IMG/VR virus record: IMGVR_UViG_3300034375_009028
Length of the DNA: 64,000 nucleotides
Origin: a virus
Taxonomy: Duplodnaviria > Caudoviricetes
Direction: 5' to 3' (one strand)
Position 1 is the stretch's first letter. Each line of letters starts with the position of its first letter. The position numbers and the translations under genes were made by a program. The notes beneath the pieces are model-generated. The model searched no databases, was not told the DNA's origin, and saw nothing but the letters and a program-made list of their open reading frames with translations. Shown piece by piece: positions 27,606 through 64,000 of the stretch.

Positions 27606-28297
27606 TCGGTACTTCCTCTCCTTGTACGACGTGTTAATGTAGAAAATAAAACTTTACCTATGGCAGAAATCAAATTACCTTCAATTTCATTAAACACATT
27701 CATATTTAATTTGAATGCATAATTTGCCTCTTCAATTATATCATCAATTTCATGTTGGTCAAAGGGCAATTCATCTAACACATTTCTATAATTAGTTTTA
27801 AATTCTTTCTCGTCTGGAATGTCAGTAAAAAGATAAAAGTTCATTCCTGCATCATCAACCTTCAATGCAGTTTGAGCAATACTTTTTAAGAGTTGTCCTC
27901 CAGACAAATCTCCAATATACCTAGTGTAATGATGTGCAATTAAAAGATCCTGATTAGACTTAGAGACTTCTTTAATTCTTGCAACATATTCTTTACAAGA
28001 CTTTGTTTGTGTAATTAAATCTCTCCAATCAATACCAAGATAATATTGCAAGTCTTTTTCTAAAGACTTTTTGCGGAACAATTCAGGATAATAAATGTTA
28101 CGCAAAATGGTATCACTTTTATGATTCTCAAACTCCTCTTCCATTGCAGAGTATATAAAATATAAATCTGAGAGAAGTCTAATATAAGATTTTTTTTCAA
28201 CAACCCCTTTTAAAAAGCAGGTAATAAATCCTGTGTTCTCTGCCATAGTATGGGACTTTTTAGTTCCCTCTCTAATTTGTTTAGATAGATCTGTCAT
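27602..28297 (-). CDS. ho1: Heme oxygenase (cyanobacterial ho1 type)
   Basis: REGTKKSHTMAENTGFI..FLKG (proximal His) and HHYTRYIGDLSGGQ. Confidence 0.95.
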   Translation of the reverse strand: MTDLSKQIREGTKKSHTMAENTGFITCFLKGVVEKKSYIRLLSDLYFIYSAMEEEFENHKSDTILRNIYYPELFRKKSLEKDLQYYLGIDWRDLITQTKSCKEYVARIKEVSKSNQDLLIAHHYTRYIGDLSGGQLLKSIAQTALKVDDAGMNFYLFTDIPDEKEFKTNYRNVLDELPFDQHEIDDIIEEANYAFKLNMNVFNEIEGNLISAIGKVLFSTLTRRTRRGSTE

Positions 28298-29106: not shown

Positions 29107-30040
29107 TTACTTTTTCAATACTTGGAATATAATGGTTGCGAAGAACTTCTTTCCATTCAAAGTTCTTTGAATATTCAATAATTTCTTCTCTATGATTTAC
29201 TGAATATTCTCTATTTTTTATAATAGCATCTTCAACATATTCAAGATCTTCTATTTTACTTTCTGGAATTACTGTAATAAATTCTTTATCTAAATCAAGA
29301 TTTGCTTTGCCCCATTCACAAACAACTACTCCTAATCCAGCAGCAAGAGCTTCCATACAAACAAGTGGATGTGCTTCCCCATCCGAAAGAAGTACTAAAT
29401 TACCATAGTCAGTCAGATCATTATAAAGAGTTTCTTTTGACCATTCACCAAGATAGTTTTTAGAAGTATTAAATCTTTGGTCTGCTAAATTTCCAGCAAA
29501 CCAAAGACTATCAATACTTTGGAACATATGCTGACGCTTACGATAATCAATTTTAGCAAGATAGATACTTCTGTCTGCATATTCTGGAGTATCTGTTACA
29601 CGGAATCTTTCCCTATTAACGCCATTAGGAGTTACATAAGTATTTTCCTTAGGAATATTAAACATCACATTATAAACACTTTGAATTCCAGGAGATAGGC
29701 AAAAAACATTTGGTTTAATTCTTTGGAATTCATTCGCAACATTTACGTATCCACCAAACATTTCTTTGCGTTCCAAATATCCAAAATGACTAGTGATTGC
29801 ATTTGGATATTGAATATATGGAACAATAGGAATGAATTCATCATAATGGACATGAACAAAATCTGGAACAAAAGCATTTATTCCATTAATAATTTGTCTA
29901 AAGTCTTTTGTATTGATAATTTGAACTTCATGTCCTAGTTCTTCTAGAGCATTTTTTGTGTCCCATACTAGAATTTCAACTGCTCCCCAACCTGTTGGGG
30001 GAATAGGCATAATTCCAGGACCTACTAATGTAATTTTCAT
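29090..30040 (-). CDS. GT-B (GT4-like) glycosyltransferase
   Basis: GPGIMPIPPTGWGAVE N-terminus and LLSDGEAHPLVCMEALAAG (E-x7-E motif). Confidence 0.8.
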   Translation of the reverse strand: MKITLVGPGIMPIPPTGWGAVEILVWDTKNALEELGHEVQIINTKDFRQIINGINAFVPDFVHVHYDEFIPIVPYIQYPNAITSHFGYLERKEMFGGYVNVANEFQRIKPNVFCLSPGIQSVYNVMFNIPKENTYVTPNGVNRERFRVTDTPEYADRSIYLAKIDYRKRQHMFQSIDSLWFAGNLADQRFNTSKNYLGEWSKETLYNDLTDYGNLVLLSDGEAHPLVCMEALAAGLGVVVCEWGKANLDLDKEFITVIPESKIEDLEYVEDAIIKNREYSVNHREEIIEYSKNFEWKEVLRNHYIPSIEKVIERHA

Positions 30041-30504
30041 TTTAATTTATCGGGGTAATCTGTACAAATTCCATAACAACTAGTAACACGAAGGTTATCC
30101 CAACTCATGTTATTCCATTCTGGCATCACAATAACAGTATTGTTAGTATATCTCTTTCCTGGATAAGCCCATATTTGATGTTTGCTTGTTAGTGTATAAT
30201 CATCTTCTTGATGCCAAAAATAATTATATCCAGAAGTGAGAGAACTCATATGGTGCAAAGTATCTAGGTCTTTGCAATGTATCCATAAATTATCTTGCCT
30301 TGCTGCCAACCAAAACAAAGTAACTAAATGATCTGGTTCATCATGTCCCAACCAATAAGTGTCCGTTTGTCTATGATATCTAAGATCAATTTCAACATCA
30401 TATCCTTTACTAATACACTCATCAACTTGAGAGGGAAGATTTTCTAACCTGGGGTCAGGACCATTTGTGTTCGCTCGATGAGCAATAATTCTTTTCTGTT
30501 TCAT
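30037..30504 (-). CDS. Small GDPD/PLC-like phosphodiesterase
   Basis: IIAHRAN, GYDVEIDL, LGHD, LWIHCKD, GICTDYP. Confidence 0.7.
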   Translation of the reverse strand: MKQKRIIAHRANTNGPDPRLENLPSQVDECISKGYDVEIDLRYHRQTDTYWLGHDEPDHLVTLFWLAARQDNLWIHCKDLDTLHHMSSLTSGYNYFWHQEDDYTLTSKHQIWAYPGKRYTNNTVIVMPEWNNMSWDNLRVTSCYGICTDYPDKLK

Positions 30505-31232
30505 AGTTTTTGTCTAACACATGCGGCGTCCATCGTGCATGGGGCAAGATCAGAAAGATTAAACCTTCTCAAGAATGACCCCATCTTAAATGCTTCTGGA
30601 GATGGTTCCCAAATACCTTGATAAACATGTTCAATGTCATCAAATGCATTTTTTGACCACTCAAGATACCTAGATCCAAAAAATTGGATTGTGTCTGGAA
30701 ATCTGGGATGATGTCCAGGCAAATAAAACTTACTAGAATCGCATTGATTTAAATCAGGAAATCTAATTAGAGAAGTATCATATCTAGCCAACACAATAAA
30801 ATCATATTCGGTTCCAGTCTGTTTGGTATGTTCTTCAACCAAATTAGATACCTTTTGAATAGAACGTAACTGTGACATTACATTACTGTAATTTTTTTCA
30901 TTCCAATGATTTCCTTGTGGATGCTTCCCTGTGAATTTAGCATCTATAAAAGATTTTGCTTTGGGGGGAAGAACAAAAGTTTCTGGAGCATCATACTCAA
31001 GAACAACTGGTTTATAATTTCTATCAATTACATCCAAAGCATCTTTTGGAATTGGGCATCTACTAATCTTTGACCAACTAGAATAATCATATTCTCCTCC
31101 GTCTTCTGTCCACCAAGTGTGACAAAAAACATCAGTATCGTATCTGTTTAAAATTGTCTGTTTATATGTGTTGATCACTTTAGGAGTATCAACAAATCTA
31201 GGTTGTCCAAAAAACGCTAATGCTACTTTCAT
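30501..31232 (-). CDS. Putative glycosyltransferase-like protein (KVALAFFGQPR family)
   Basis: ALAFFGQPR, DVFCHTW, YDFIVLARYD, DTIQFF; paralog of 33202-33915. Confidence 0.55.
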   Translation of the reverse strand: MKVALAFFGQPRFVDTPKVINTYKQTILNRYDTDVFCHTWWTEDGGEYDYSSWSKISRCPIPKDALDVIDRNYKPVVLEYDAPETFVLPPKAKSFIDAKFTGKHPQGNHWNEKNYSNVMSQLRSIQKVSNLVEEHTKQTGTEYDFIVLARYDTSLIRFPDLNQCDSSKFYLPGHHPRFPDTIQFFGSRYLEWSKNAFDDIEHVYQGIWEPSPEAFKMGSFLRRFNLSDLAPCTMDAACVRQKL

Positions 31233-31831
31233 TTACTGTACCCAAATGCCATAAAGTCTTCTTTAGTGTGATTATACACTATTTCTTTTAATTCGTCAGT
31301 GTAATATGTTTCAAAAGAATCATGTTTAGTATCATTCGTTTTTGGGAACGATACTGAATCAAAAGAAAGATTTGTTTTTTTAACAAACAGATCTTCCCAT
31401 TCTTCTTGTATATTTTCAAACTTTAATATATTAACCTCAACATCACCTCTATTTTTAATAAAATCAATTTGCCTTAAAGGAGATTGTTCTGTCCAATAAT
31501 TTCTGGGTGGTCTAGGGTCTCCATCAGTATGAGTGGGCCAATCGTGGAACTCTCCACTTTTTACCCACTCTTCAAAATTATTATACTTCATAATAAACTT
31601 ATGATTATGTCTCCTATGCTGAGACCACCATGAAACAAACCTATCATAAGGATTTCTAACTATCATAAAGTATTGATAATCCTTATAATCTGGGATAGAT
31701 TTTACATAATATTCAACGGTATCGTGCCAATAACTAAAATCAAATCCCTTAGGAGACAACAAAACATTTAATGTTGTAGTACATGCTCTAGGATTTCCAA
31801 TAAAAATTATTTTTTGTTGTCTATTAATCAT
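31229..31831 (-). CDS. Sulfotransferase (Sulfotransfer_2-like)
   Basis: 5'-PSB-like PRACTTT, 3'-PB VRNPYDRFVSWW and a C-terminal YYTDE..EIVY...KEDF..FGY. Confidence 0.8.
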   Translation of the reverse strand: MINRQQKIIFIGNPRACTTTLNVLLSPKGFDFSYWHDTVEYYVKSIPDYKDYQYFMIVRNPYDRFVSWWSQHRRHNHKFIMKYNNFEEWVKSGEFHDWPTHTDGDPRPPRNYWTEQSPLRQIDFIKNRGDVEVNILKFENIQEEWEDLFVKKTNLSFDSVSFPKTNDTKHDSFETYYTDELKEIVYNHTKEDFMAFGYSK

Positions 31832-33205
31832 TCAAATATCCCCATCATAATGTTCAAGGAAGTAATTCAAATCTTCTGGAGTACCAATACCCCACATACC
31901 AGACTTATCGATTTCTTTGATTCGAATCTTCTTGCCATCATCAATCGCTTCATTAAATACTGGGCAAACGTAATATTCATTATTAACACGAATATCCTTT
32001 TCAATCATCTGCTCAGCATACTTAACATAATCAGAACCCTTCTTCCAATAATAGATACCAACTGTAGCGTGCTCAGAAATAGGTTTCTTCTCAGCAACCT
32101 CTGCAACGTATCCATCCTCTCCCAGTTTAGCATAAGACCACTTAGGATGGGTTGCGGGGAAAGTAACAATTCCACCATCAACCTCACCATTTTGGAATGC
32201 ATATAGAGTCTCGTTAGAGTCCCATTCAACAAACTGGTCAGAGTTTGCCATTACTAGCGGTTCATCTTTGTTGATGAATTCTTTCGCAAGTAGAGTGGTA
32301 CAAGCTGCGCCTTCGGTGATACCATCGACTTGTACAATGTTACAACCAGGAGCAATGAGAGGTAACAGGTAATTAAGGTTATACTTGTCATAATGTTCTT
32401 TTTGTACAATAAATGTATAGTTTGCTTTGATGTTCAGGTTCTCCACAACAACCTGAATCATTGGTTTACCTTTAACTTCAATCAAGGGTTTGGGGAAGGT
32501 GTATCCCTGACTAGCAAACCTGCTGCCAGCACCTGCCATAGGAATCAGAACATTCATAGTCTTGCTCTCCCATGCAACTTTTTTCTTTGTTCCATTAAGA
32601 ATTTTTTTAATGCGATCGATCTTACTCTGATTAAGATCTTTACGATCTTCTACAGGAACAAGATGGCACTTACTATCTAAAGCACCCTGGCGACCAATAT
32701 GACTATCTTCAATAATAACAGTATCATTTGGAAGAGCACCAAGTGCAGTCATACACTTCCAATACATTGCTGGAAATGGTTTGTTACGAACAACGTCTTC
32801 ATTAGAGACGTACATGTCAACAAATTCAAGAAGTCCCAAACGCAGAAGAATAATCTTGACAGTATTACGAATACTGTTAGAAGCAACAGCAATTTTATAA
32901 CCAGCATCTACAAGTTGCTGGAAATAACCCATAAGTTGATAATCTTTAGCGACACAATCGTTAAAAATTTTGAGGGTTGCTTCTTGCTTGTCTCTCCAGA
33001 TTTTATCATATTGATCTACTGGGAGACCTTTATTTTTTGTTAGTAGTTCTAGTTTTGCTTTTGTAGGAAGACCATCATAGATGCTGACATGCTCTTCTCT
33101 ACTAATTGCGTATTCTGGACCAAGTGCCTGGTTTAGTGCATCGTAATGATAATCTTTACTATCAATTAGTACACCATCTAAATCAAAAATAACAAGTTTC
33201 GTCAT
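31832..33205 (-). CDS. HAD phosphatase fused to an NTP-sugar nucleotidyltransferase
   Basis: N-terminal FDLDGVL, KP and IEDS HAD motifs; C-terminal LIPMAGAGSRF...PKPLI and WGIGTPEDL. Confidence 0.88.
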   Translation of the reverse strand: MTKLVIFDLDGVLIDSKDYHYDALNQALGPEYAISREEHVSIYDGLPTKAKLELLTKNKGLPVDQYDKIWRDKQEATLKIFNDCVAKDYQLMGYFQQLVDAGYKIAVASNSIRNTVKIILLRLGLLEFVDMYVSNEDVVRNKPFPAMYWKCMTALGALPNDTVIIEDSHIGRQGALDSKCHLVPVEDRKDLNQSKIDRIKKILNGTKKKVAWESKTMNVLIPMAGAGSRFASQGYTFPKPLIEVKGKPMIQVVVENLNIKANYTFIVQKEHYDKYNLNYLLPLIAPGCNIVQVDGITEGAACTTLLAKEFINKDEPLVMANSDQFVEWDSNETLYAFQNGEVDGGIVTFPATHPKWSYAKLGEDGYVAEVAEKKPISEHATVGIYYWKKGSDYVKYAEQMIEKDIRVNNEYYVCPVFNEAIDDGKKIRIKEIDKSGMWGIGTPEDLNYFLEHYDGDI

Positions 33206-33915
33206 CTTACGTTTTTCCTATCTCTCCAAAGTAAATATTTCCAATTGTTTTTTGTAATTGGAAGTTCATGTCTTTTCTGTGCATTGAATCCAAGAATACA
33301 TTCTGGATTTATCTCTGCACCCATCTCACATAACTCAACAAAATTATCATATACGTCAAGATATTTATCCATCAATTCAGAAGACCCAAAAGCAAAGTGA
33401 TCATTTATACCATGCTCAAGATGTGCAAATTCATTTAATACATTGACAGTATTTAAATCGTAATTAGTTACTGGTCCAATCTCTCTAACAAAATATTCAT
33501 CTGTTCTAAGTCTAATCACACAATCATACTTAAAATTATTTTCTTGCTCATACTGTTTTTTAAGTTCATTGGCACAACTTAAACTATAGAACATTGAAAT
33601 AATGTTATTGACTGGGTGAGGAAATCTACTATCAGGAACAATATCCTCAGCTTCAAATTCTTTTGGTTCTTCAAAAACAATTTTCTTTGGTTGCCATTTG
33701 TCTGACATAAATTGTTTTAAATCGGATTCCCAACGTCCTCTGTCTTTATACTGATCCCAGAAGTATGAACCTACCCACGCTTCATCATACCAGATATGTG
33801 CAAATACATCAATCTCGCTATCTTGGTTTGCTTCCCAAAAAGTATTCAAATGATTCTTATAACATTCTTTCAGGTGTCTAGGTTGTCCTGAATACAATAA
33901 AGCAATTTTAGACAT
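33202..33915 (-). CDS. Putative glycosyltransferase-like protein (KIALLYSGQPR family); start revised to MSKIALL
   Basis: SGQPR, DVFAHIW, YDCVIRLRTD, NDHFAFG; the revised start overlaps the GT6 stop by 8 nt. Confidence 0.55.
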   Translation of the reverse strand: MSKIALLYSGQPRHLKECYKNHLNTFWEANQDSEIDVFAHIWYDEAWVGSYFWDQYKDRGRWESDLKQFMSDKWQPKKIVFEEPKEFEAEDIVPDSRFPHPVNNIISMFYSLSCANELKKQYEQENNFKYDCVIRLRTDEYFVREIGPVTNYDLNTVNVLNEFAHLEHGINDHFAFGSSELMDKYLDVYDNFVELCEMGAEINPECILGFNAQKRHELPITKNNWKYLLWRDRKNVR

Positions 33916-34627
33916 GATACTTACTATTATCTTTAGATAGGTGTACAATTTTTGGGTCAAAGGTGCATGAGTCTGCAAATACTTCTGGATATGCAAATGA
34001 TGGATGAACAACAAAAACATCTTCTCTATTTTGAGAATAGAATTTGTTTAAATGACTCTCATCATGCCAAGTAGCAATTATATCCTTTTCATAATCTTCA
34101 TCAATCCTACGATCAAGTTCATTAATTAAATCAAGAACTTCAGGAATTCTACCACCCCACAAACAACCTTGGAAATATACTGAGATATCATCACCTTCTG
34201 TAAAAGAAGCATTGGATAATTTAGTGGTATCAAATGCTCCAGTCCCACTATCGTGAGGTGTCATTTTTAGATAATGGCATGGATGATGAACGCCAATATA
34301 TTTCTTAGATTCATCAATAATGTCAGATACATTTACAGTATCAACAACCAACATATCTGCATCTAAAAAGACCAACCAATCACAATCCTCTAGATCACCA
34401 AAAGCTTTATTAAGCATTTTAAATCTGTAAAGAGTTATAAATGGCCAGTCCAAGTGCTCCTGCGAATAAATTACTGCATTGTCTGGTGCTTCTGGAATCT
34501 CACCATCAGTGAATACCAAATATTTTTTTTCTACATCAGGAAGAAAAAACTTTTCGCAATTCTCATACCATCTAGGTAAAAAGTTTAGATACTTACTTGT
34601 TCCAATAAAAACTACAGCGACTTTCAT
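33908..34627 (-). CDS. Family 6 glycosyltransferase (ABO/alpha-1,3-Gal(NAc)T-like); start revised to MKVAVVFIG
   Basis: FIGTSKY..F, CEKFFL, LVFTD, FLDADM (DxD), YFQGCLWGG and WHDESHLNKF are GT6 signatures. Confidence 0.88.
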   Translation of the reverse strand: MKVAVVFIGTSKYLNFLPRWYENCEKFFLPDVEKKYLVFTDGEIPEAPDNAVIYSQEHLDWPFITLYRFKMLNKAFGDLEDCDWLVFLDADMLVVDTVNVSDIIDESKKYIGVHHPCHYLKMTPHDSGTGAFDTTKLSNASFTEGDDISVYFQGCLWGGRIPEVLDLINELDRRIDEDYEKDIIATWHDESHLNKFYSQNREDVFVVHPSFAYPEVFADSCTFDPKIVHLSKDNSKYHV

Positions 34628-35418
34628 TAAATTACAATCCAATCAGGGCAATAAAGATCCTTTGTGTCCAGGTGTGCATTTCCAGGTCCAAACCATTTTT
34701 GTGGGGCAATTACCTTTTCGCTATTGGACAACCATGCACCCCACCAAGAGAATGAAGAGTTTGCAATAATATGTCCACTACACAAGGACATTAAACACAT
34801 ATCAACATAGTTAATATTATTTTCAGCAATCATAAATCTTTCATCATCAAACAAAGATTGTTGATTGCACCATTCAGTATCATCAGAAAAAATAATCACT
34901 GTTCTATCATTATCAAAATGAGATAGAGCTTCTTCATAATAAGACAATTCCAAAGCATGATGATTTGGATTGGTAGTATAATCTGTTCTTCGAATATGAA
35001 GTGCTACTGGATTATCTACAGTTTGAATCATTTCTTTTGCTGGTTCCAAATACTCAGATCCAAAAGTAAAGTCTTCTTTGATCTCATCTTTGATGTGAGC
35101 AAAGTATTTTTCAGATTGAAAGTATCCTTCAAGATTTACCCACTTTGGGCAATTATTAAATAACTCTTCATCAAAAGCAAAGGAACTTTCTTTTACAGTT
35201 TCTCTTTCTCCACAAACAAATTGAACATTAAGTGCCTTTAGTCCTTTTAAAGTAAAGGCATAAAATAATTGATGATCAACATATTCGTTCGGAACTTTTT
35301 TTGGAGGAGGGATCATCCAATTTAAATTATTATTAGCAGCAATTCCACGCAGTGATGCGTATTGGAACATTTGATTTCCAAGTCTGCCAAGTTTTCCTAA
35401 GTTATTAAATCCTATCAT
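34627..35418 (-). CDS. Alpha-1,2-fucosyltransferase, GT11
   Basis: GRLGNQMFQYA, GYFQSEKYF, HIRRTDY, IIANSSFSWWGAWL. Confidence 0.92.
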   Translation of the reverse strand: MIGFNNLGKLGRLGNQMFQYASLRGIAANNNLNWMIPPPKKVPNEYVDHQLFYAFTLKGLKALNVQFVCGERETVKESSFAFDEELFNNCPKWVNLEGYFQSEKYFAHIKDEIKEDFTFGSEYLEPAKEMIQTVDNPVALHIRRTDYTTNPNHHALELSYYEEALSHFDNDRTVIIFSDDTEWCNQQSLFDDERFMIAENNINYVDMCLMSLCSGHIIANSSFSWWGAWLSNSEKVIAPQKWFGPGNAHLDTKDLYCPDWIVI

Positions 35419-36340
35419 AATTACCTAAAAACCAATTGTACGTTAACTCTAATCCTTCACGAAGATCATACTGATGTTTGAATCCAAGATTTTTTAATTT
35501 ATCAACATTCATCAATTTCCTGGGAGTACCATTTGGTTTACTAGTATCCCATTTTATTTCACCTTTAAATCCTATAACTTCTGACATTGTTTCTGTCAGT
35601 TCTTTAATTGATATATCTTCACCTGTTCCAATGTTAATGATCTCAGGTTCACTATATTCTTGCATACAGAATACAGTCGCTTCAGCCATATCCTCAATAA
35701 ACAAAAATTCTCTAAGAGGAGAACCATCTCCCCAGCACCAAAATTCTGAGTCACCATTTAGTTTTGCTTCATTCATTCTACGCATAATTCCAGGAATAAC
35801 ATGACTGGATTCTGCATTAAAATTATCATTTGGACCGTATAGATTTGTTGGTTGTAATGCTATTGCATCAAATCCATATTGCTGCCTATATGACTGGCAC
35901 ATTTTTATACCAGCAATTTTTGCAATCGCATATGCATCATTAGTCGGTTCTAAAGGACCAGACATTAACTGATCTTCAGTAATAGGAATAGTAGGATGCT
36001 TTGGGTAAATGCAAGATGACCCAAGAAAGAGAAGTTTTTTTACTCTATTCTTATATGATGCTTCAATTACATTTGATTGAATCATCAGATTTTGATAGAT
36101 AAAATCTGCAGGATAAGTGGCATTAGCGTATATACCTCCAACTTTTGCTGCAGCAAGAAAAACATAATCTGGTTCTGCCTCTTGCAAATAAAGTTGAGTT
36201 TCTACCTGATCCGTAAAATCAACCTCTTTTCTAGTTGCAGATATAATATTCCTATATCCTTTTTTACGAAGATTTCTCACTATTGCTGATCCAACTAAAC
36301 CATTAGCACCAGCAACCAATATTTTAGAATCACTGTCCAT
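35405..36340 (-). CDS. fcl: GDP-L-fucose synthase; start revised to MDSDSKIL
   Basis: [57 protein letters not shown]. Confidence 0.95.
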
Positions 36341-37337
36341 AGATACACATATCCTCAATTAATTGATCAAATGTAATTTTTGGTTCCCACCCTAATTTTT
36401 GCTTTGCTTTTGTTGGATCTCCAAGAAGAGATTCAACTTCAGATGGTCGGAAGTATTTAGCATTTACTTTTACAACTGTTTTACCAGTATTTTTATCAAC
36501 GCCAATCTCTTCTATTCCTTCTCCACTCCATTCAATATTCATCCCAAAATAAAAAGCAGATTTTTCAACAAATTCTTTAACAGAATATTGCTCTCCTGTA
36601 GCAATAACATAATCATCTGCTTCCTCTTGTTGAAGCATCAACCACATAGCTTCAACATAATCTTTTGCATGACCCCAATCCCTTTTTGCATTTAGATTTC
36701 CTAAGTATAAGCATTCCTGAAGACCTGCAGAAATTCTAGACAATCCTCTAGTAATTTTACGAGTCACAAAAGTTTCACCACGACGAGGAGACTCATGATT
36801 GAATAAAATTCCAGTACAAGCATACATTCCATAAGATTCACGATAATTCTTTGTGATCCAATATCCATAAAGTTTAGCAACACCATATGGAGACCTTGGA
36901 TAAAAAGGTGTGGTTTCTTTTTGAGGTACTTCTTGCACTAATCCATATAACTCTGAAGTAGATGCTTGATATATCCTACAATGACGTTCTAATCCCAAAA
37001 TCCTCACTGCTTCAAGAATACGAAGAGTTCCCAGTCCATCAACATTACCAGTATACTCTGGCAATTCAAAAGACACCTTTACATGACTTTGAGCCGCTAG
37101 ATTATAAATTTCATCTGGTTGAGACTTCTGCAATACATGAACAATATTTGCAGAATCAGTCATGTCCCCATAATGAAGATGAAGATTTGGATGATTAAAG
37201 ATATGATCAATACGATGTGTGTTGATCATAGAAGCACGACGAATGACTCCATGAACTTCATATCCTTTCTCAAGAAGAAGTTCTGTAAGGTATGAACCAT
37301 CTTGCCCAGTAATTCCAGTTATTAATGCACGTTTCAT
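36330..37337 (-). CDS. gmd: GDP-mannose 4,6-dehydratase
   Basis: [63 protein letters not shown]. Confidence 0.97.
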
Positions 37338-37408
37338 AAATTCAAAAAGTTTATACTTCTAGTATATCATATGATATCAATAAATACTACTACAATTCTA
37401 ACAGCATT

Positions 37409-38062
37409 ATGGATAAAAAAATAACAGTAAAAAAATTTGATGGTAATTACTTTTATAAAGCAAGCAATATTGTTCCAGAATATTTAATTGATAAGTTAGA
37501 ATCCACTTCAGTAGAATGGTTAGAATCTACTAGAAAAGATGTATTCTTCAAAAAATCTGGAGATAAAGATTTCAAAGAAAATAAAGAACATTATCCGCCA
37601 GAAGCATCTTCAGAACTAATATCAAATATGAATGTTAGTTCTAATAATATGTGGACAAACTATTTGTCATCTATTAAAGCACATGTGTTGGAGTATTGTA
37701 AATTAACAAAAACAAAATATCCACTAAAATTAGATTCTACATGGGTTACGAGAGTAGCAGATGTAGATATCCCAGGAGCTTATGATAGGAATCAATTAAG
37801 ATACTTAAGAGAAAATCATAATAATCTTGGAAACATGCATAGTCATAAAGGTAAAAGAATTGGTGTTATATTTTATTTAAAAAATCCAGACCCAAAGTAT
37901 GGAACAGTAATTAGATTAAATAACAATAAAATATTCCAAAATAATGGTGAAGAAAATAGTTTGTTGATATTTAACCCAGAGTTATACCATACTGCAATAT
38001 ACCCAAGTGAAGAAGATTTGCAAAAAAGTCCAAGAATAACAATAGTAACTGATTTTGTTTAA
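37409..38062 (+). CDS. Putative 2OG-Fe(II) oxygenase-fold protein (HxH type); only convincing plus-strand gene
   Basis: MHSH..RIGVIFYL, LLIFNPELYHTA, PRITIV; AATAAATA late box at 37379-37386. Confidence 0.65.
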   Translation: MDKKITVKKFDGNYFYKASNIVPEYLIDKLESTSVEWLESTRKDVFFKKSGDKDFKENKEHYPPEASSELISNMNVSSNNMWTNYLSSIKAHVLEYCKLTKTKYPLKLDSTWVTRVADVDIPGAYDRNQLRYLRENHNNLGNMHSHKGKRIGVIFYLKNPDPKYGTVIRLNNNKIFQNNGEENSLLIFNPELYHTAIYPSEEDLQKSPRITIVTDFV

Positions 38063-38682
38063 GGAAGAATCCAATCTGGCACATGGAATGGTTCATTTAT
38101 ATACCAATCAAAAATAATACAGCATTTTGAATATTGGTTCCTTCTAGGATAATATTGTGTACTTCGATATTTTGTTCCATCAAATATTACTAACCTATTC
38201 TCAAATGTCTTTATGTGATCAGTAGATACTCCACGTTCATTTACTACAATATAAGTATTTGGATCGATATTCTTTAACAAATATATTGATCTTATAAATC
38301 GTTTTTTTACTTGACCTTCAGGGTCTTTTATTTTAGATATTGTATCACTATAACATCTTCCTTTGGTAGATGTTGGTACATTTCTTTCAGCAAAACAAGA
38401 AAACGGTGTGAGCGAGTATTCATCAATTCCACGACTTTTTATGTATGAAGTAACATGCTTTTTAACTTCCAAACAAAATACGTTCCAACAGTTTAAAGAA
38501 TATGGAAAATACTTATCAGAAGTTAAAGCCAGTCCGTGACAATCTATAATAGATTTTGTTATATCAATATAATCAGTAGATAATAAATTAAGAGTCAAAT
38601 GAAGATTGCATTGAATATATAATTCATTTCTGATCTTCTCACTAAAAACATCATCTATAATCAAGAATTTATTTGTTTCCAT
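38059..38682 (-). CDS. Degenerate 2OG-oxygenase-like protein lacking iron ligands
   Basis: LIIDDVFS, RSIYLLKN, ENRLVIFDG and CIIFDW fit the fold pattern, but no HxD/HxH or distal His is seen. Confidence 0.45.
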   Translation of the reverse strand: METNKFLIIDDVFSEKIRNELYIQCNLHLTLNLLSTDYIDITKSIIDCHGLALTSDKYFPYSLNCWNVFCLEVKKHVTSYIKSRGIDEYSLTPFSCFAERNVPTSTKGRCYSDTISKIKDPEGQVKKRFIRSIYLLKNIDPNTYIVVNERGVSTDHIKTFENRLVIFDGTKYRSTQYYPRRNQYSKCCIIFDWYINEPFHVPDWILP

Positions 38683-39493
38683 ATATTTTATTCATATAAT
38701 TGGAAGAATGTAGTGGAGATATTTTTTCAAACATCTTTGTGTTATTTGGACACATAGAACAAACAGGTTCTTCTTGTCTACTAAAAAAATCAATAACCTT
38801 AATGTCACTATCTGTTGGTAGTAATGGTTTATATCTCAAATAAGGATTCCATTTAGATGACAATTTATCTCCATACTTTTGTTTTTGTACTGGCAAATAC
38901 GCAAGTGGCGCACATTTATATATTTTAAAATCATTCAAGGTAAAATTATTTTGACCACCTGGGCAGTTATCCCAAGACTTTTTATAGTCATAAGTACCAA
39001 GTGGCTCTATAGAAGACCCATACCCACTATACGTTTTTAACCAGTAATTAGATGCATCATGAATTCTATAATTCACACCAGATTCAATTATTTTTGAAAT
39101 AGACTTTTCAAATAACCTAACATAATTTAAATCTTTGGAATGCTTTGTTATTGTCAGTATGCATTTATTTTTCTTTAGAGCCTCAGTTAATCCAGGAACT
39201 CTATCAAAAAGAAGTCCATTAGACACCAACTCAAGTTCTTGATCATCTTGAACATCCCAAACTTCTTTGGTCATGTATATTATATCTACAATTTGTTTAT
39301 TGAGTAATGGTTCTCCACCCAACATAGAAAGTTCTAATGGTCTTATTCTCTTATTCCAAGAGAGATACCATTTCTCCAACAAATCTAAACTAAAATTTTG
39401 CCTATAACCATCATTAGTATAATGCCCGCACCCCTGACATGTAAAATTACATGAATGAGTTACGTGCCATTCTAAATGAGATATTGTCAACAT
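38669..39493 (-). CDS. Radical SAM protein with a Cys-containing C-terminal extension
   Basis: CNFTCQGC (CxxxCxxC), GGEPLLN, SNGLL, and C-terminal WDNC..KC..CSMCP (Twitch/SPASM-like). Confidence 0.88.
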   Translation of the reverse strand: MLTISHLEWHVTHSCNFTCQGCGHYTNDGYRQNFSLDLLEKWYLSWNKRIRPLELSMLGGEPLLNKQIVDIIYMTKEVWDVQDDQELELVSNGLLFDRVPGLTEALKKNKCILTITKHSKDLNYVRLFEKSISKIIESGVNYRIHDASNYWLKTYSGYGSSIEPLGTYDYKKSWDNCPGGQNNFTLNDFKIYKCAPLAYLPVQKQKYGDKLSSKWNPYLRYKPLLPTDSDIKVIDFFSRQEEPVCSMCPNNTKMFEKISPLHSSNYMNKIYGNK

Positions 39494-57820: not shown

Positions 57821-57833
57821 TTATACCTATTTA

Positions 57834-57916
57834 TACCCAGTATAGGACTTGAACCTACACGTCACAAGGACAACAGGACCTAAACCTGCCGCGTCTACCA
57901 ATTCCGCCAACTGGGC
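57834..57916 (-). tRNA. tRNA-Leu(UAG)
   Basis: GCCCAGT/ACTGGGT acceptor, GCAGG-TTTAGGT-CCTGT anticodon arm, long variable arm. Confidence 0.92.
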
Positions 57917-57951: not shown

Positions 57952-58356
57952 TCAAACGTCACCTTCAGAGCGAACTTCTGACCTTTCAATACTAAACGTA
58001 CCCTCAGGATATCGTGCAGAAAGTTTTTCAAAGTTCATTTGCAAGACATCATCAAAAGAAATGTCTAGTGCCATACATGCTTGAGCAAGATACCAACAAA
58101 TGTCTCCAAGTTCTCGCTTCATATGAAATGTGTTTTCTTCACTATATGGTTTTCCTTGGAATACAATCTTTTTGACTACTTCAGTAAACTCACCAGCTTC
58201 TGCAGTAAGACCAAATGCAGCAGTCAGAAGTTGTGTTACATTAGCACCACTTGCCTCAAGTTCATTAATCCTAGTCAAAAATACAGGATACTCCAAACTC
58301 GGAGCACTAGTAGTTTGCTTCACAAAATCAATATACTTTTCAGTATCAATAGTCAT
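57952..58356 (-). CDS. mazG: MazG-like nucleotide pyrophosphohydrolase
   Basis: GLTAEAGEFTEVVKK..FQGK, KRELGDICWY, N.EKL..RYP. Confidence 0.92.
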   Translation of the reverse strand: MTIDTEKYIDFVKQTTSAPSLEYPVFLTRINELEASGANVTQLLTAAFGLTAEAGEFTEVVKKIVFQGKPYSEENTFHMKRELGDICWYLAQACMALDISFDDVLQMNFEKLSARYPEGTFSIERSEVRSEGDV

Positions 58357-58395: not shown

Positions 58396-59616
58396 TTATC
58401 TCTGTCTAGTGTTGCCGTAATGAATTACTTCAAGATCAGGATCCTCAAACTTTCTCCAAGGATCAACTACAACACTACCTTTTGGAATTTCACAATACAA
58501 TTCATCTTCTGAATTACTATACCAATACTTGTAGGTAGTTGTAGCACTATGTGCAAGAAGAAAGATTGCTGGTTCTTTACTAGTATAAGTGTCTCCAGTA
58601 TATTTGTCAACATATATTGGAGTTATTCCAGACTGTTGGCAGTAGTGTCCAACCAATAAACTGTAACTTCCGTCAATATAAGGCACTCTTGGTTTGTATG
58701 CTTTGCCATGAATAACAATAGGTAATTGATATTCGTTTGATAACTTTACTAAGTAATCTGCAAGATTTCTTGCTTGACCTTCTCTAGAACCCATCACAGA
58801 TTCAAAAATATCATAACCAAGTTCTAATTTATATGAAAGATATCTTAGTGCAATATTATCTCTGGGATGACAAGCACCACCATCTCCCATTCCAGCAGTC
58901 ATATAAGAAGAGTTTATAATTCTATTTTCAGCTGAACACAATGCTTGAGTAACAACATCGACATTGATATTTCCTTGCCTCATAGCAACATCTTGGATCA
59001 TATTTACATATCCAATTTTTGTACTAATAAAGGTATTATAAAAAACTTTTATACATTCACACTCATCCCAAGTACCAACAATATACTTAGGATCATTTTC
59101 CATAATTGTTTTGTAGAACTCTATTAGTTCTTTTGCGTCTCCATTTTCATATCCATCTTCGGTTCCAATCATTACCATTTCTGGATTTACCATATCCCAA
59201 GATACCGTTCCCATAGCAATAAGGTATGGATTATAAACAAATCTCATATTACTAACTAAAGGTTTAAACTGTTGTCTAGTAGTTCCAGGAAGAACTGTAG
59301 ATATCAAAACAACAAGTTGACCATTAGCATATTGATTAATCTGAGATAAACAATCTTTAACTATAGAGTAATCAAAATCTTTTGGTTCTAAATGCATGGA
59401 AGGAGTACTTCCATCATAATCTGGATGATGTGGTGTTGGAACGGCAATGAAAATAATTTCAGACTTATCAACAACAGTTTTTATATTGGGGCAAATTTTA
59501 ATTTCAGTACTATGACGTTTAAGAATATCGTATCCATAAACAGTATGTCCTTTACGTGCTATTTCATTTGCACAAGGATTTCCAAGTTTACCTAACCCAA
59601 TAAATCCAATATTCAT
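58396..59616 (-). CDS. UDP-glucose/GDP-mannose dehydrogenase family protein
   Basis: GFIGLGKLG, IAVPTP, ISTVLPGTT, ECIKVFYNTF, GGACHPRD (catalytic Cys). Confidence 0.9.
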   Translation of the reverse strand: MNIGFIGLGKLGNPCANEIARKGHTVYGYDILKRHSTEIKICPNIKTVVDKSEIIFIAVPTPHHPDYDGSTPSMHLEPKDFDYSIVKDCLSQINQYANGQLVVLISTVLPGTTRQQFKPLVSNMRFVYNPYLIAMGTVSWDMVNPEMVMIGTEDGYENGDAKELIEFYKTIMENDPKYIVGTWDECECIKVFYNTFISTKIGYVNMIQDVAMRQGNINVDVVTQALCSAENRIINSSYMTAGMGDGGACHPRDNIALRYLSYKLELGYDIFESVMGSREGQARNLADYLVKLSNEYQLPIVIHGKAYKPRVPYIDGSYSLLVGHYCQQSGITPIYVDKYTGDTYTSKEPAIFLLAHSATTTYKYWYSNSEDELYCEIPKGSVVVDPWRKFEDPDLEVIHYGNTRQR

Positions 59617-60578
59617 TATTCTCTCTCCAGGTCTAAAGTAACGCAGTGAAATCCACCACTAAGAGTTCTTTGATGTCTCATGGGTAACATTGCACATTCA
59701 ATTCCATAAGTTTCTAATATTTTTCTTGTTGGGTGTTGATCTTCTTGTAGTGCGACTAGATTAGGAGATACACTAAATAAATTCATATTAGACCACTCTG
59801 AAGCATTATTATAACCTGGATAATATCCAATGTCCACTGGGTCTGGGCAATTTATAACATTCCATGTATTAAAAGGATATGGAAGCATATCTATTGATTT
59901 AACTCTTGTTGGATTGACCATTAATAGACCTTCCCTCAAAAAACAAACCGTAGTGTCAATGTGTACATAAGTATAGATATCTTTTACGACTCTAACTGTT
60001 GCTTTAGATCCTAGAATCCTTTGAAGTAACTTTGCTCCTGCCATATTACCACTATTAGAAACAAGATATAAAACATCATTATTTGCACGGATAATATTAG
60101 CAGCATCAAAAGCTGGAGTAACCTCAGTTAATGCAAGTTTATCTGGGTTTTTAATGCAAGATTCATCATACAATCCATCGTGATAAGAACAAGGGATTTC
60201 AATAGTATTTGGAATATGATGTCTAAATGATCTCCAATTACCCCTTCTAGATCTAAGAGGTTGTGGTGTTGCTATAGATACATCACCATGAACAAAAACA
60301 GAATCTCTTGGACAGTAATTATAGTAATCTGTAGGTTCTCTTTTTGGTCTTAGAACTTCTACACCTTCACCACGTAAAAAATTACAAAATACTTCTAGAT
60401 CTTCATTTGCTTCCTCTATAACTTTTTCTGGATATAAACCAGATGGTACTTCTGAAACATCTTCTATTCCAGCATAATTAATTGTTCTCAAACTTTTATC
60501 CATTGGAGGAATTTTTGCATAATCAGCAACTCCAACAATTACCTTTTTTAATTTGTCCCATTCATTAGTTGACTTCAT
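59616..60578 (-). CDS. Amidinotransferase (AGAT/StrB1-like pentein)
   Basis: NEWDKL..VIVG, YCPRD, FDAAN, HIDTT, RTLSGGFHCVTLDL.R; the Asp/His/Cys triad pattern is intact. Confidence 0.9.
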   Translation of the reverse strand: MKSTNEWDKLKKVIVGVADYAKIPPMDKSLRTINYAGIEDVSEVPSGLYPEKVIEEANEDLEVFCNFLRGEGVEVLRPKREPTDYYNYCPRDSVFVHGDVSIATPQPLRSRRGNWRSFRHHIPNTIEIPCSYHDGLYDESCIKNPDKLALTEVTPAFDAANIIRANNDVLYLVSNSGNMAGAKLLQRILGSKATVRVVKDIYTYVHIDTTVCFLREGLLMVNPTRVKSIDMLPYPFNTWNVINCPDPVDIGYYPGYNNASEWSNMNLFSVSPNLVALQEDQHPTRKILETYGIECAMLPMRHQRTLSGGFHCVTLDLERE

Positions 60579-60585
60579 TTTTTTT

Positions 60586-61389
60586 TTAAAATTGTGAGGT
60601 TAATACAATCATATCAGAATCATTTTTTTTACCATAAGTAAAAAATTCATCCAGACTATATCTTAAATGTTTTTTCATCCACCAGTAATAATATGCACAC
60701 CTGGATCTTTCGTGATGAACTCTGTCAATATGCAAACTAAATTCTGTACTTGGGAGATCATTATTTGTTGTTATTAAAGGAATACAATATGTTTTACCAG
60801 TATGACCTATAAAGTAATCGACTGTTGCAGAATTTGAATTATAGTTTTTTATAGCAACACTCTTATCAAAAAAATATTTTTCTCCTCGGCAATGTAGAGA
60901 TAAAAGTTTTTCAACATAATCTCTATTCAAAACAACTGGACCAAAATAAGTGTGCCTCAATTTTGGATGAAGGAAGAAAGGAATAAATTCTGTAGATTCA
61001 AATCCCAATTGAATACAATCCCAATCATAAGGAACTCTATTCATGAGGTATTCCCAATCAAAATTCCAATACTCTATCAAGTTTAAATCATAATCATCTT
61101 CCATTAATAACAAATATTCTTCATCTGTTGTAGTAAACCATTTTTTAATAAATTCTAAATGTGTCACTGCATTAGATAAGCAGTATGCAGGCATTCCCAT
61201 TACATCACCGTCTATATATTTTGTTCCCCATTCTTTAATATTTGAGGCCAAGAATTTAGATCCAGAAACTCTTGTGTAATCAACCTTCCAATAATTAAAC
61301 TGATCTTCCATATATTTTCTACGGTCAGATCTATTATCTAAATTAAAATAGTATATGTGGGGAAAATTTTTTAATTTATTCATGACCAT
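60586..61389 (-). CDS. GT25-like glycosyltransferase, paralog 4
   Basis: YYFNLDNRSDRR, THLEFIK, LLMEDD, PYDWDCIQLG. Confidence 0.75.
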   Translation of the reverse strand: MVMNKLKNFPHIYYFNLDNRSDRRKYMEDQFNYWKVDYTRVSGSKFLASNIKEWGTKYIDGDVMGMPAYCLSNAVTHLEFIKKWFTTTDEEYLLLMEDDYDLNLIEYWNFDWEYLMNRVPYDWDCIQLGFESTEFIPFFLHPKLRHTYFGPVVLNRDYVEKLLSLHCRGEKYFFDKSVAIKNYNSNSATVDYFIGHTGKTYCIPLITTNNDLPSTEFSLHIDRVHHERSRCAYYYWWMKKHLRYSLDEFFTYGKKNDSDMIVLTSQF

Positions 61390-62180
61390 GATACACTCTT
61401 TTTAATCATTCCTTTATCATTTGGTTTTCCATATAAAAACATTTCGTCCAATTGATATTTTTTACTATCAAATCTCCACCATTCATAATACTTTATTCTA
61501 TTGTTTTTAACTAAAGAATATTTTTTACTCTTATCATCAAAAAATTCCAAGTTGCCTGGAAATATTGGGAAGCAATAAGTCTTTCCACAGTGACCTATAA
61601 AATAATCAACAGTTCCAGATTTTAAACCAAACTTTTTATTTGCAATTTTATTGGTTAAATTATACTTATCATCTACACAATGAAGTTTTATAATCTTCTT
61701 TACATACCTCCTATTCAACATCGCAATATTAAAAGTATGTCCAGGAACTATTGGATGAAGATAGAAGGGTATATAATTGAGATTTTCAAATCCAAGTAGA
61801 AGACAATCCCAATCATAGGGAATTCTATTCATAATCTCTTGCCAATCAAATGGCAAATATTCTAAAGTACCAAAATCTATAATATCTCTAGATATAATTA
61901 AAGATTCTTCTTCAGTGCTATTATACCAATTTTTTAAAAAGTCTAAAACTGATATTGCATAAGATGCAGTAGATACCGACAATTTATAATTTTTTTTATC
62001 TAAAATAAGATCCTTCCATTCGGATAAATTATTTTTATTAAATTTTAATGGAACCCTTTCATAAGAAGAAACTTTATAATTGCTTAAATTAGTTTCAATG
62101 TACTCTTTACGGTTACTATGCTCATCAGAATTAAAATAATATATCTTTGGGATATTTTTTAATTTATTTTTCAAATCCAT
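61380..62180 (-). CDS. GT25-like paralog 3 with a degenerate acidic motif
   Basis: Colinear with its neighbours (PYDWDCLLLG, DYFIGH.GKTY) but IISRD replaces LMEDD. Confidence 0.65.
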   Translation of the reverse strand: MDLKNKLKNIPKIYYFNSDEHSNRKEYIETNLSNYKVSSYERVPLKFNKNNLSEWKDLILDKKNYKLSVSTASYAISVLDFLKNWYNSTEEESLIISRDIIDFGTLEYLPFDWQEIMNRIPYDWDCLLLGFENLNYIPFYLHPIVPGHTFNIAMLNRRYVKKIIKLHCVDDKYNLTNKIANKKFGLKSGTVDYFIGHCGKTYCFPIFPGNLEFFDDKSKKYSLVKNNRIKYYEWWRFDSKKYQLDEMFLYGKPNDKGMIKKSVSWS

Positions 62181-62209
62181 AACTAATATAATATTTTTTT
62201 TTATTTATT

Positions 62210-63112
62210 TTAATTTCTAAAATACTCTAAATAAGCATCACCATACTTATCTGTAGAAGTTTGTGTGATATCATATGATCTAAATTTTTCTGGTTTCAAT
62301 GACATTCTATCATGAATACTATCACCATAAGAAAAAAATGCGTCTAGATCATAATTTATAGACTCATTTTGCCACCAAAAATAGCAAGTATTTCTAGCAT
62401 TAACATCTCCACCAAATCTATAAAAACTTTGCAAAGTGCTATTATTTTCAAAGCTACCAAAATTTGGATTTATTGTTATTAATGGCATACAATATGTTCT
62501 TCCATTATGAACCATAAAATAATCAACTGTTCCAGATCCAGAGTTTTTTGTATTTACATGCCAAGGATAGTTGCATATTTTATGTACTAACTCATATTCA
62601 TCTCCATTACAATGAAGATCTAATATTTTTTCAACATACTCTCTCCTCAAAAGAACAGGACCAAAGTCATGAGCATCTTCTATTGGATGCAAATGAAATT
62701 TTATTTTCTCTGGATTTTCAAAACCCAATAATATACAATCCCAGTCGTAAGGGATTCTATTCATAATGTCATCCCAATCAAAAAACCAGTATTGAATTAG
62801 TCCAATATCATAATCATCTTCCATCAAAAGAACATAATCATCTTTAGATTCTCTATACCACTTCTTTAAAAAATCCAAATGAGTGATTGCATTGGCAGCA
62901 ACTGGAACCATCAAATGATAATCTTTAATATCTAAAATAAGATTTTTCCATTTACTATTCTCAGAAGCAAGATATTTTGTTCCAGATATTCTTTCATAAT
63001 CAATCCCATAGCGATCAAATTGATTTACCATCCAGTTTTTTCTATCTTTTCTATTATCAAGGTTAAAAAAATAAACCTTGGGCATATTTTTTACTTTTGC
63101 TTTTAAATCCAT
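62210..63112 (-). CDS. GT25-like glycosyltransferase, paralog 2
   Basis: YFFNLDNRKDRK, THLDFLK, LLMEDD, PYDWDCILLG. Confidence 0.75.
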   Translation of the reverse strand: MDLKAKVKNMPKVYFFNLDNRKDRKNWMVNQFDRYGIDYERISGTKYLASENSKWKNLILDIKDYHLMVPVAANAITHLDFLKKWYRESKDDYVLLMEDDYDIGLIQYWFFDWDDIMNRIPYDWDCILLGFENPEKIKFHLHPIEDAHDFGPVLLRREYVEKILDLHCNGDEYELVHKICNYPWHVNTKNSGSGTVDYFMVHNGRTYCMPLITINPNFGSFENNSTLQSFYRFGGDVNARNTCYFWWQNESINYDLDAFFSYGDSIHDRMSLKPEKFRSYDITQTSTDKYGDAYLEYFRN

Positions 63113-63954
63113 ATCATCAATTTTTCATTTTCATCTCTATAAACTTCTGTTGTACGAATATCATACATCGCTTCCATCCTCCATTCATTATCTTTATTAT
63201 AGTTAAAGATCTGAAATTTTGTATATAACTTACTTCTCTGTTTCCACCAATATGAAATAGATTGGGAAGCAAGTTTGTTAACTAGATGTTCATTATCATT
63301 TGGTATATATTCAGTATTCAGAGAAAATATTGGTAAGACATACGTCAAACCAATATCAAATAAGAATTCACTAGTAGAACCATACTGAACCTCTTTTATT
63401 CTTTTATTTCTATTATTGTAATGGAGTAAAAACTTACTACCTTTAGTATGATAGTACTTTACTTTTTTAGCAAAATACCTAGTTATCATGAAGCAATTAG
63501 AAGAAGTATTATAATAATCTAAAGACTTTTTAGATTTTTCTATTTCAAATGGATGGAGATGCATTTTTACTGAACGAAGTCTGGAATGATAAAACTTAAT
63601 ACAATCCCAATTGTAAGGTAAATTATTGATCAAATAATCCCAGTCAAAAATCCAATTTTGAGATGTAGATAGATCAACATTATCTTCCATTATTATACAA
63701 GTTTCAGAATCATTACCATCATACCAATCAACTATGGTTTTTATTAGATTAAGTGATTTTGATAATTCGTACTCTGTTGTATATATTTTTTCATCTTCTA
63801 TATCATTTTTCCATTCTTCAAAGTTTTCTATCTTATATTTTTTCTCTATAAACTTATAATTGCTAATGTTATAAAAATCAAATTGATTTTTCATATATTC
63901 TCTTTTTTCAAGAGAATCTGTCAGACAAAAAATGGGGGGCAAGTTATTAAGCAT
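63103..63954 (-). CDS. GT25-like glycosyltransferase, paralog 1
   Basis: EKREYMKNQF, IIMEDN, PYNWDCI, HLHP. Confidence 0.68.
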   Translation of the reverse strand: MLNNLPPIFCLTDSLEKREYMKNQFDFYNISNYKFIEKKYKIENFEEWKNDIEDEKIYTTEYELSKSLNLIKTIVDWYDGNDSETCIIMEDNVDLSTSQNWIFDWDYLINNLPYNWDCIKFYHSRLRSVKMHLHPFEIEKSKKSLDYYNTSSNCFMITRYFAKKVKYYHTKGSKFLLHYNNRNKRIKEVQYGSTSEFLFDIGLTYVLPIFSLNTEYIPNDNEHLVNKLASQSISYWWKQRSKLYTKFQIFNYNKDNEWRMEAMYDIRTTEVYRDENEKLMIWI

Positions 63955-64000
63955 ATCAAAACTCCATCAATATCTTGGAAGTTTCATCTTCATATTTCTA

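Follow-up and report, generated by a model that had tools for sequence, protein, structure and literature searches.

A StrB1-like amidinotransferase linked to GT25-like glycosyltransferases in cyanomyoviruses: a candidate cassette for a guanidino-sugar glycan

What might a phage build with an arginine amidinotransferase encoded among glycosyltransferases (GTs)? The question is raised by IMG/VR record IMGVR_UViG_3300034375_009028 (Duplodnaviria; Caudoviricetes), a 64,000-nucleotide (nt) stretch of viral DNA referred to here as the window, in which six minus-strand open reading frames (ORFs) lie tightly packed at positions 58396-63954 with spacings of -10, +29, -10, +7, and -1 nt. Along the direction of transcription, they encode four paralogs of 266 to 300 amino acids (aa) resembling GTs of family GT25, a 320-aa amidinotransferase, and a 406-aa dehydrogenase, followed by MazG. 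The GC content of the cassette, 0.27 to 0.34, is the minimum of the window. A first-pass annotation had described the packing, the AT-rich composition, and a 1-nt stop/start overlap, all as found here, and had named the enzymes rightly. We give slightly better than even chances to the answer that the cassette makes a guanidino sugar, which is built into a short, decorated oligosaccharide on a macromolecular acceptor.

The argument starts from the amidinotransferase. In a search of solved structures, its residues 4 to 319 align with StrB1 (1bwd) at 213 bits (E = 6.5e-62), compared with 121 bits for HsvA, 117 for arginine:glycine amidinotransferase (AGAT), and 103 for SxtG (E = 1e-28 to 1e-34); these Protein Data Bank (PDB) bit scores served as a proxy for a tree against AGAT, StrB1, SxtG, and CyrA. 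The 320-aa protein has no Pfam match. The motifs CPRD (D92), FDAAN (D158), HID (H206), and GGFHC (C312) are all present, and the four residues align with the StrB1 and AGAT motifs and are invariant in 18 phage homologs of 63 to 93% identity. Because the StrB1 alignment is full length and the motifs are conserved, the protein is assigned from its sequence to the StrB1 branch, as an amidinotransferase with intact catalytic residues and not a plain AGAT. It is taken to work like StrB1, yet it is not filed as StrB1 itself, and genes for cyclitol formation or phosphorylation (inositol dehydrogenase, kinase) were found neither in the window nor in the full cassette of the relatives L004 to L009. Proteins of this family abound in aquatic metagenomes (4914 at E <= 1e-10). 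The single long fusion in the family (P0272) is a bacterial StrB1-like protein whose C-terminal half is unassigned and gives no clue to a partner.

More genes had been expected past position 64000, and a search upstream for an aminotransferase had been suggested; near-identical metagenome contigs bear out both ideas. In these contigs, the dehydrogenase gene, MazG, and the next backbone gene share about 98% nt identity with the window and the amidinotransferase shares 93% protein identity, and upstream there follow a fifth GT, a 196-aa DegT/DnrJ/EryC1 protein, a Sulfotransfer_2 protein, and a 170-aa protein, and then the gp41 helicase, UvsX, and DNA polymerase. The six window genes make up the downstream two-thirds of a cassette that counts 10 genes, or 11 with a sixth GT; it is inserted between the gp41 helicase and MazG and runs in the order small 2-oxoglutarate (2OG)/Fe(II) oxygenase, Sulfotransfer_2, mini-DegT, five (elsewhere six) GTs, amidinotransferase, and UDP-glucose dehydrogenase (UGDH)-like protein. 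The earlier count of four GT paralogs is right within the window and is otherwise an artifact of its end, as the codons at 63999..63967 read the C-terminus of a fifth paralog and match the GT upstream of the ortholog of the first window GT (GT_a) in L004 and L006; the same gene order is visible in L004 to L009. When the window is compared with L004 (52638-63997), nt identity is 98% for the UGDH-like gene, MazG, and the next gene, 90% for the amidinotransferase gene, and 81 to 87% for the four GT genes, and this drop indicates a recombination boundary or faster GT evolution.

The DegT-family protein of the cassette is small (about 200 aa). It scores 57 to 77 bits in Pfam, matches two core parts of the DegT profile, and keeps the pyridoxal phosphate lysine (SFQxxKHL) and the pyridine-N aspartate (IIDAA). 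The 170-aa protein has an invariant HxD...H...R signature, and its model, with a predicted local distance difference test (pLDDT) score of 92, shows a 2OG/Fe(II)-oxygenase fold whose closest matches are prolyl hydroxylases (including a viral collagen prolyl 4-hydroxylase [P4H]), AsqJ-type oxygenases, and PolD. Neither a flippase, a polymerase, nor a priming transferase is found in the cassette, and no cassette protein has a hydrophobic segment.

Whether these genes belong together was judged from 182 relatives in IMG/VR, of which the best 80 loci (amidinotransferase 63 to 93% identical) were analyzed, with the loci that have sufficient flanking sequence as denominators. At least one GT25-like gene is linked to the amidinotransferase in 66/66 loci and at least three in 61/66; the mini-DegT is linked in 65/66, the small 2OG oxygenase in 55/66, and the sulfotransferase in 34/64, and a UGDH-like gene lies directly downstream in 34/74. 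The co-occurrence that the first-pass annotation had proposed to check thus holds for the GTs, and the amidinotransferase is not the unlinked enzyme that would have spoken against it; for the dehydrogenase, linkage is lineage-specific. Dehydrogenase and sulfotransferase are accessories, the dehydrogenase being confined to one sub-lineage, and the constant set consists of an oxidant, a DegT-family aminotransferase, an arginine amidinotransferase, and glycosyltransferases. Two architectures are seen. Type 1, that of the window, has the gene order given above and always lies between gp41 and MazG, with MazG next after the cassette wherever downstream sequence is sufficient and with the amidinotransferase and UGDH-like genes meeting within 4 nt wherever the junction was inspected. 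Type 2 has three or four GTs, DegT, oxygenase, amidinotransferase, and a GT, lies at another genome position, and has neither UGDH nor sulfotransferase. Because the same core recurs in this second architecture elsewhere in the genome, and again in the cultured phage S-SCSM2R, it appears from gene content to behave as one mobile functional module.

The glycosyltransferase assignment draws on profiles and structure. The four window GTs are 26 to 45% identical to one another, and GT_a, which aligns with the other paralogs and has a positional ortholog in all type-1 loci, is 24 to 31% identical to the others, including the fifth from relatives. All four match phrog_2835, "glucosyltransferase" (1e-25 to 1e-47), and two of them match Pfam GT25 (PF01755) at 16.3 and 19.7 bits, under the 24-bit cut-off, the other two having no match. 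An AlphaFold2 model of GT_d, the last paralog before the amidinotransferase, was built from an alignment of 61 paralogs; GT25 enzymes rank first for it in every structure library searched, the top matches being a bacterial beta-1,4-galactosyltransferase and, at a template modeling (TM) score of about 0.5, COLGALT1 (the human collagen hydroxylysine galactosyltransferase), Mimivirus R655, LpsA, Lic2B, LgtB, and LgtE, and dozens of viral proteins annotated GT25 match with TM scores of up to 0.75. Judging by the model, the window GTs have a GT-A fold of the GT25 type. One aspartate, a candidate for the metal-binding acidic (DXD-type) motif, is kept in at least 90% of the 61 aligned paralogs (within MEDDxD in most, within SRDIID in GT_c). 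Across loci whose amidinotransferases are 65 to 93% identical, the five type-1 GTs keep their order and each best matches its own positional counterpart; the paralogs are therefore old, each probably with its own role.

The dehydrogenase calls for more caution. It exceeds the Pfam cut-offs for PF03721 (UDPG_MGDP_dh_N, 66 bits) and PF00984 (central domain, 56 bits), its alignment with human UGDH extends to residue 399, and it retains Cys249 (GGACHPRD), Lys190, Asn194, and Asp253; against TIGR03026 (NDP-sugar dehydrogenase), it reaches 144 bits, under the cut-off of 189.8. The first-pass statement that both enzymes keep their catalytic residues is accurate for the amidinotransferase and for these four positions, and fails at the NPEFLxEG motif of the dehydrogenase, which reads NPYLIAMG. 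The first Glu of this motif in human UGDH is the base for thioester hydrolysis. A Glu at that position occurs in 0/150 of the nearest cluster representatives, nearly all of which have GGxCHPRD, and a Glu-less subfamily of 437 cluster representatives (E <= 1e-30) is marked by NP[YFSAQ]xIAMG and GGxCHPRD, versus the canonical NPEFLxEG and GGxCFxKD. It is conceivable that the His adjoining the catalytic Cys could substitute for the missing base. Because the canonical Glu pair is lost, we label the protein UGDH-like and regard uronate formation as likely; of the earlier view that it makes uronic acids, family membership stands and the product is a prediction from the sequence. The suggested uronamide of a guanidino compound found nothing in its support. 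Fusions of UGDH-like proteins, some with an MTS methyltransferase domain, one with an intein, and some with unassigned parts, give no clue to a partner. At the junction of the two genes, gagaaTAATGaat, the dehydrogenase ATG shares 1 nt with the amidinotransferase TAA (TAATG), and from this overlap the dehydrogenase is predicted to be translationally coupled to the amidinotransferase.

When these enzymes are placed in order, a pathway can be proposed. The pathway partner of StrB1 is the DegT/StrS-family aminotransferase StsC, and streptidine is formed by StrI, StsC, and StrB1, which oxidize, transaminate, and amidinate. The core logic of the cassette (oxidize, transaminate, amidinate, glycosylate) parallels that of streptidine synthesis, and on this analogy a guanidino-sugar glycan is the best reading. 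A sugar carbon would be converted to a ketone by the 2OG oxygenase; alternatively, the host, or the GDP-mannose 4,6-dehydratase of the phage itself, may provide a 4-keto nucleotide sugar. Homologs of this phage dehydratase are present in 2/5 large cassette-bearing contigs, an uninformative count with four of the five incomplete. The mini-DegT would then transaminate the keto sugar to an amino sugar, and the amidinotransferase would place the amidino group of L-arginine onto the amine to yield the guanidino sugar. Each positionally conserved GT25-like paralog may add one residue, giving a short, defined oligosaccharide, and in the lineage of the window the chain may also gain a uronic acid, through the UGDH-like enzyme, and sulfate. 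Tailoring may act on a nucleotide sugar or on the completed chain; the missing DegT C-terminal domain would suit a bulky substrate. Since the enzymes are all soluble and come without a flippase, polymerase, or priming transferase, assembly would take place in the cytoplasm, directly on the macromolecular acceptor. That acceptor could be the host lipid A-core, which GT25 enzymes extend in lipooligosaccharide (LOS), or else a protein of phage or host, just as GT25 enzymes act on collagen hydroxylysine; both fit equally. Rather more tentatively, and at somewhat less than even odds, we suggest that infected cells come to contain a short zwitterionic oligosaccharide in which a guanidino sugar is combined with uronate and sulfate, attached either to host lipid A-core or to a virion protein, with the sugar coming from a minimal set of three enzymes, the 170-aa oxygenase, the 200-aa single-domain DegT, and the StrB1-like amidinotransferase.

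Several points weigh against the guanidino-sugar proposal. Product, substrate, and acceptor are all deduced from genes, and where the keto group would come from is guesswork. Neither a kinase nor a nucleotidyltransferase is found in the cassette. The mini-DegT lacks the C-terminal domain (profile positions of about 240 to 360), so that its activity is a prediction; with both Glu residues of the dehydrogenase motif gone, uronate formation is not assured. A bacterial amidinotransferase clade of 35 to 40% identity adjoins SbnA/SbnB-like and adenylation/peptidyl carrier protein (PCP) genes, a context that points to amino-acid chemistry and not sugar chemistry, and since the family can serve such chemistry, a role of the phage enzyme off sugars stays alive as a rival. 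Finally, the nearest "cellular" homologs (46 to 47% identity), from Bdellovibrionales metagenome-assembled genomes (MAGs), occur without GTs, and may be phage-derived.

Both of these bacterial settings have features of their own. L104, L106, L107, and about 60 other bacterial loci encode an SbnA-like protein (PALP), an SbnB-like protein (ornithine cyclodeaminase), the amidinotransferase, and then an adenylation-PCP protein of about 1700 aa, which from the gene content would be a conserved guanidino amino-acid pathway, apparently undescribed. In a Pseudobdellovibrionaceae MAG (L091:5949-9026), housekeeping genes surround a mini-DegT that shares 44% identity with its phage counterpart, a 437-aa unassigned protein, and an amidinotransferase (46%); the middle protein, compared by language-model features, is similar to viral hypothetical proteins only, and the three-gene unit suggests phage-to-cell transfer or mis-binning.

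How, then, do other explanations compare? The same streptomycin parallel could be taken to mean that the product is a soluble secondary metabolite, such as a pseudo-oligosaccharide of aminoglycoside type or another guanidino glycoside, which would leave the cell or serve within it and not be bound to a macromolecule; this is the "antibiotic synthesis gene" reading of PMC12801897. StrB1, the closest characterized enzyme, and the DegT/StsC logic do both come from streptomycin biosynthesis, oxidation, transamination, and sulfation are typical tailoring steps in such pathways, and S-SCSM2R adds a radical SAM enzyme. We nevertheless consider this unlikely. Genes for a cyclitol synthase, an inositol dehydrogenase, a kinase, an exporter, or resistance are all missing from the cassette; a set of five or six GT25-like enzymes is what one typically sees in LOS or protein glycosylation; and an antibiotic would be of little obvious use to a lytic phage. 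Similarly improbable in our estimate is that the amidinotransferase acts off sugars, on an amino acid, a polyamine, or a protein Lys, while the 2OG oxygenase hydroxylates a protein residue that the GTs glycosylate in the style of collagen hydroxylysine. The structural matches of GT and oxygenase to COLGALT1, Mimivirus R655, and prolyl hydroxylases (one of them the viral collagen P4H) are in line with it, as are a giant collagen-like (GNQ/GLQ)n protein encoded in the window, the amino-acid contexts of the bacterial homologs, and the fact that HsvA is a polyamine amidinotransferase. It leaves no role, however, for a DegT aminotransferase linked in 65/66 loci, Lys, Pro, Ser, and Thr are all absent from the collagen-like repeats, and the inter-repeat domain was not found in a complete cassette-bearing genome.

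Far less probable are two explanations that do without a glycan of this kind. The position between replication genes and MazG/ribonucleotide reductase could suggest hypermodification of phage DNA with sugars, as for T-even glucosyl-hydroxymethylcytosine or in Bacillus phage SP-15, which has a UGDH homolog and whose DNA has been reported to bear glucuronate-type sugars. A thymidylate-synthase-family hydroxymethylase was not found, however, in a complete 246.5-kb cassette-bearing genome (a search of this genome for Tet/JBP likewise gave no match, but it is uninformative, its control being silent everywhere), MazG is a backbone gene, and we know of no GT25-type GT-A enzyme that acts as a DNA glycosyltransferase; the chance that the cassette modifies DNA is put at very little. 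We rate equally low the idea that the gene encodes a plain arginine:glycine amidinotransferase and is an auxiliary metabolic gene for creatine or guanidinoacetate, present in a glycan island by chance. Source annotations do name homologs "glycine amidinotransferase," but the enzyme scores 213 bits to StrB1 against 117 to AGAT, and its linkage with DegT and GTs reaches about 100% of informative loci in two genomic architectures.

The guanidino-sugar proposal can also be set beside known systems. With the streptidine branch of streptomycin (StrI, StsC, StrB1), the cassette shares its chemical logic, its best solved match (StrB1), the catalytic Asp/His/Cys residues, and a DegT-family partner; it differs in having no cyclitol genes or kinase, in a small 2OG oxygenase as oxidant in place of an NAD dehydrogenase, in an aminotransferase of only about 200 aa, and in being set among five or six glycosyltransferases. 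The GT25 LOS enzymes of Neisseria, Haemophilus, and Mannheimia (LgtB/LgtE, Lic2B, LpsA) are likewise soluble paralogs of this fold that lengthen a short, defined chain by one sugar each without Wzx/Wzy, whereas the phage GTs fall under the Pfam GT25 cut-off and the phage host is a cyanobacterium. In collagen hydroxylysine glycosylation (lysyl hydroxylase with COLGALT1; L230/R655/R699 in Mimivirus, which is the viral precedent [PMC9546862]), a 2OG oxygenase is similarly paired with a GT25-fold transferase, but the phage collagen-like repeats have no Lys or Pro and the collagen system has no place for a DegT protein or an amidinotransferase. The nearest named dehydrogenase homologs, in Synechococcus phage Bellamy (58% identity) and Pelagibacter phage HTVC008M (47%), share the Glu-less motif, NPYLIA(M/Q)G, and belong to UGDH-NadE-carbamoyltransferase-methyltransferase islands that have no amidinotransferase and pair the dehydrogenase with a NadE-like amidating enzyme.

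The first-pass annotation knew of no characterized phage pathway of this kind; the gene set itself has been seen before. In S-SCSM2R, which infects Synechococcus WH7803 and is the only cultured carrier found, ORF302-310 include an amidinotransferase 67% identical to that of the window, whose neighbors are GT25-like GTs, a 2OG oxygenase, and an "AHBA synthase" of DegT type; these were annotated, without functional work, as antibiotic synthesis genes in December 2025 (PMC12801897). ORF305/308/309 account for its amidinotransferase, DegT-like protein, and 2OG oxygenase. Compared with the window, the layout is type-2-like with an added radical SAM gene, and the S-SCSM2R UGDH lies elsewhere, beside a NadE-like gene, and in contrast retains NPEF. 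The same phage has a second, distant amidinotransferase, ORF266 (L089:23354-24247), adjoining KdsA/KdsB and 2OG oxygenases, whose protein is reported in the virion proteome (PMC12801897).

The window itself belongs to a T4-like cyanomyovirus, whose NrdA shares 84% identity with the NrdA of Synechococcus phages Sf-CH5/CH8 and 83% with the S-T4 protein; the window also encodes heme oxygenase and cpeT, and no close cultured phage was found by megablast of the window. Its features at the cassette are collected in Table 1, where MazG is the conserved backbone flank that marks the downstream edge of the insertion and stands outside the pathway. The T4-type late-promoter-like sequence TATAAATA, whose count in the window is at chance level, is absent from 58396-64000 and from the whole cassette of L006 and of L012; this absence, together with the position directly after the replication genes, hints weakly at pre-late expression of the cassette. 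Portions of the cassette are matched at 95 to 100% identity by contigs assembled from four metatranscriptome (RNA) libraries, and such contigs cannot prove transcription or rank genes.

Table 1. Features at the cassette end of the window
Feature	Coordinates	Strand	Supporting detail
Fifth GT25-like paralog, last ~10 codons, cut by window end	63967..64000	-	...MKMKLPRY, stop TGA 63969..63967
GT_a, GT25-like paralog, 283 aa	63103..63954	-	phrog_2835 1.2e-25; invariant Asp, PYxWD motif
GT_b, GT25-like paralog, 300 aa	62210..63112	-	phrog_2835 6.7e-41; Pfam GT25 19.7 bits (cut-off 24); 10-nt overlap with GT_a
GT_c, GT25-like paralog, 266 aa	61380..62180	-	phrog_2835 7.2e-27; acidic motif SRDIID, not MEDDxD
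GT_d, GT25-like paralog, 267 aa	60586..61389	-	phrog_2835 1.4e-47; AlphaFold2 pLDDT 95.1
StrB1-like L-arginine amidinotransferase, 320 aa	59616..60578	-	1bwd E 6.5e-62, full length; D92, D158, H206, C312
UDP-glucose/GDP-mannose-dehydrogenase-family protein, Glu-less subfamily, 406 aa	58396..59616	-	Pfam N-terminal and central domains
MazG pyrophosphohydrolase	57952..58356	-	Pfam MazG 2e-09
T4-type late-promoter-like TATAAATA, first after cassette	57828..57835	-	7 nt upstream of next gene

Elsewhere in the window, a second glycan island (28294-39493, minus strand) encodes a GDP-mannose 4,6-dehydratase, a fucose-synthase-like epimerase, GT11 and GT6 (the enzyme pair of H/ABO-type antigens), a HAD-nucleotidyltransferase fusion, a Sulfotransfer_2 protein, a GT4, a bona fide GT25 (53.9 bits), and a radical SAM protein, and adjoins heme oxygenase and cpeT. 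The giant collagen-like ORF (1-9843, minus strand) runs off the window start and exceeds 3281 aa, with 16 (GNQ/GLQ)n runs, 1239 aa in total, alternating at a regular period with domains of about 117 aa that resemble an HTVC010P tail fiber and an Actinomycetia-phage collagen-repeat protein. As an obligate acceptor of the glycan, it was considered and rejected, with its domain absent from the complete cassette-bearing genome and no hydroxylatable residues in its repeats. A second giant ORF (12761-22852, minus strand; 3363 aa) has no collagen repeats and a weak, partial match to the Phycobilisome-protein Pfam at residues 768 to 834.

In conclusion, the cassette is probably new sugar chemistry in a familiar type of phage glycan island. 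New here are the census of two architectures, the Glu-less dehydrogenase subfamily, the GT and oxygenase folds, the case against hydroxymethyl-pyrimidine routes, and the GTs as the most diverged part; both the minimal DegT and the UGDH-like subfamily that lacks the Glu pair are of enzymological interest in themselves. A literature search on guanidino sugars in glycans returned no relevant paper, and if the proposal is true, no glycoconjugate before this one would have contained a guanidino sugar. Cyanomyoviruses have many glycan islands, which are hypervariable, and an arginine-derived guanidino sugar is a chemically specific prediction for such an island. On a cell or virion surface, this sugar would carry a permanent positive charge, which could alter adsorption, superinfection, or grazing, and would give the phage a new way to recharge a surface.

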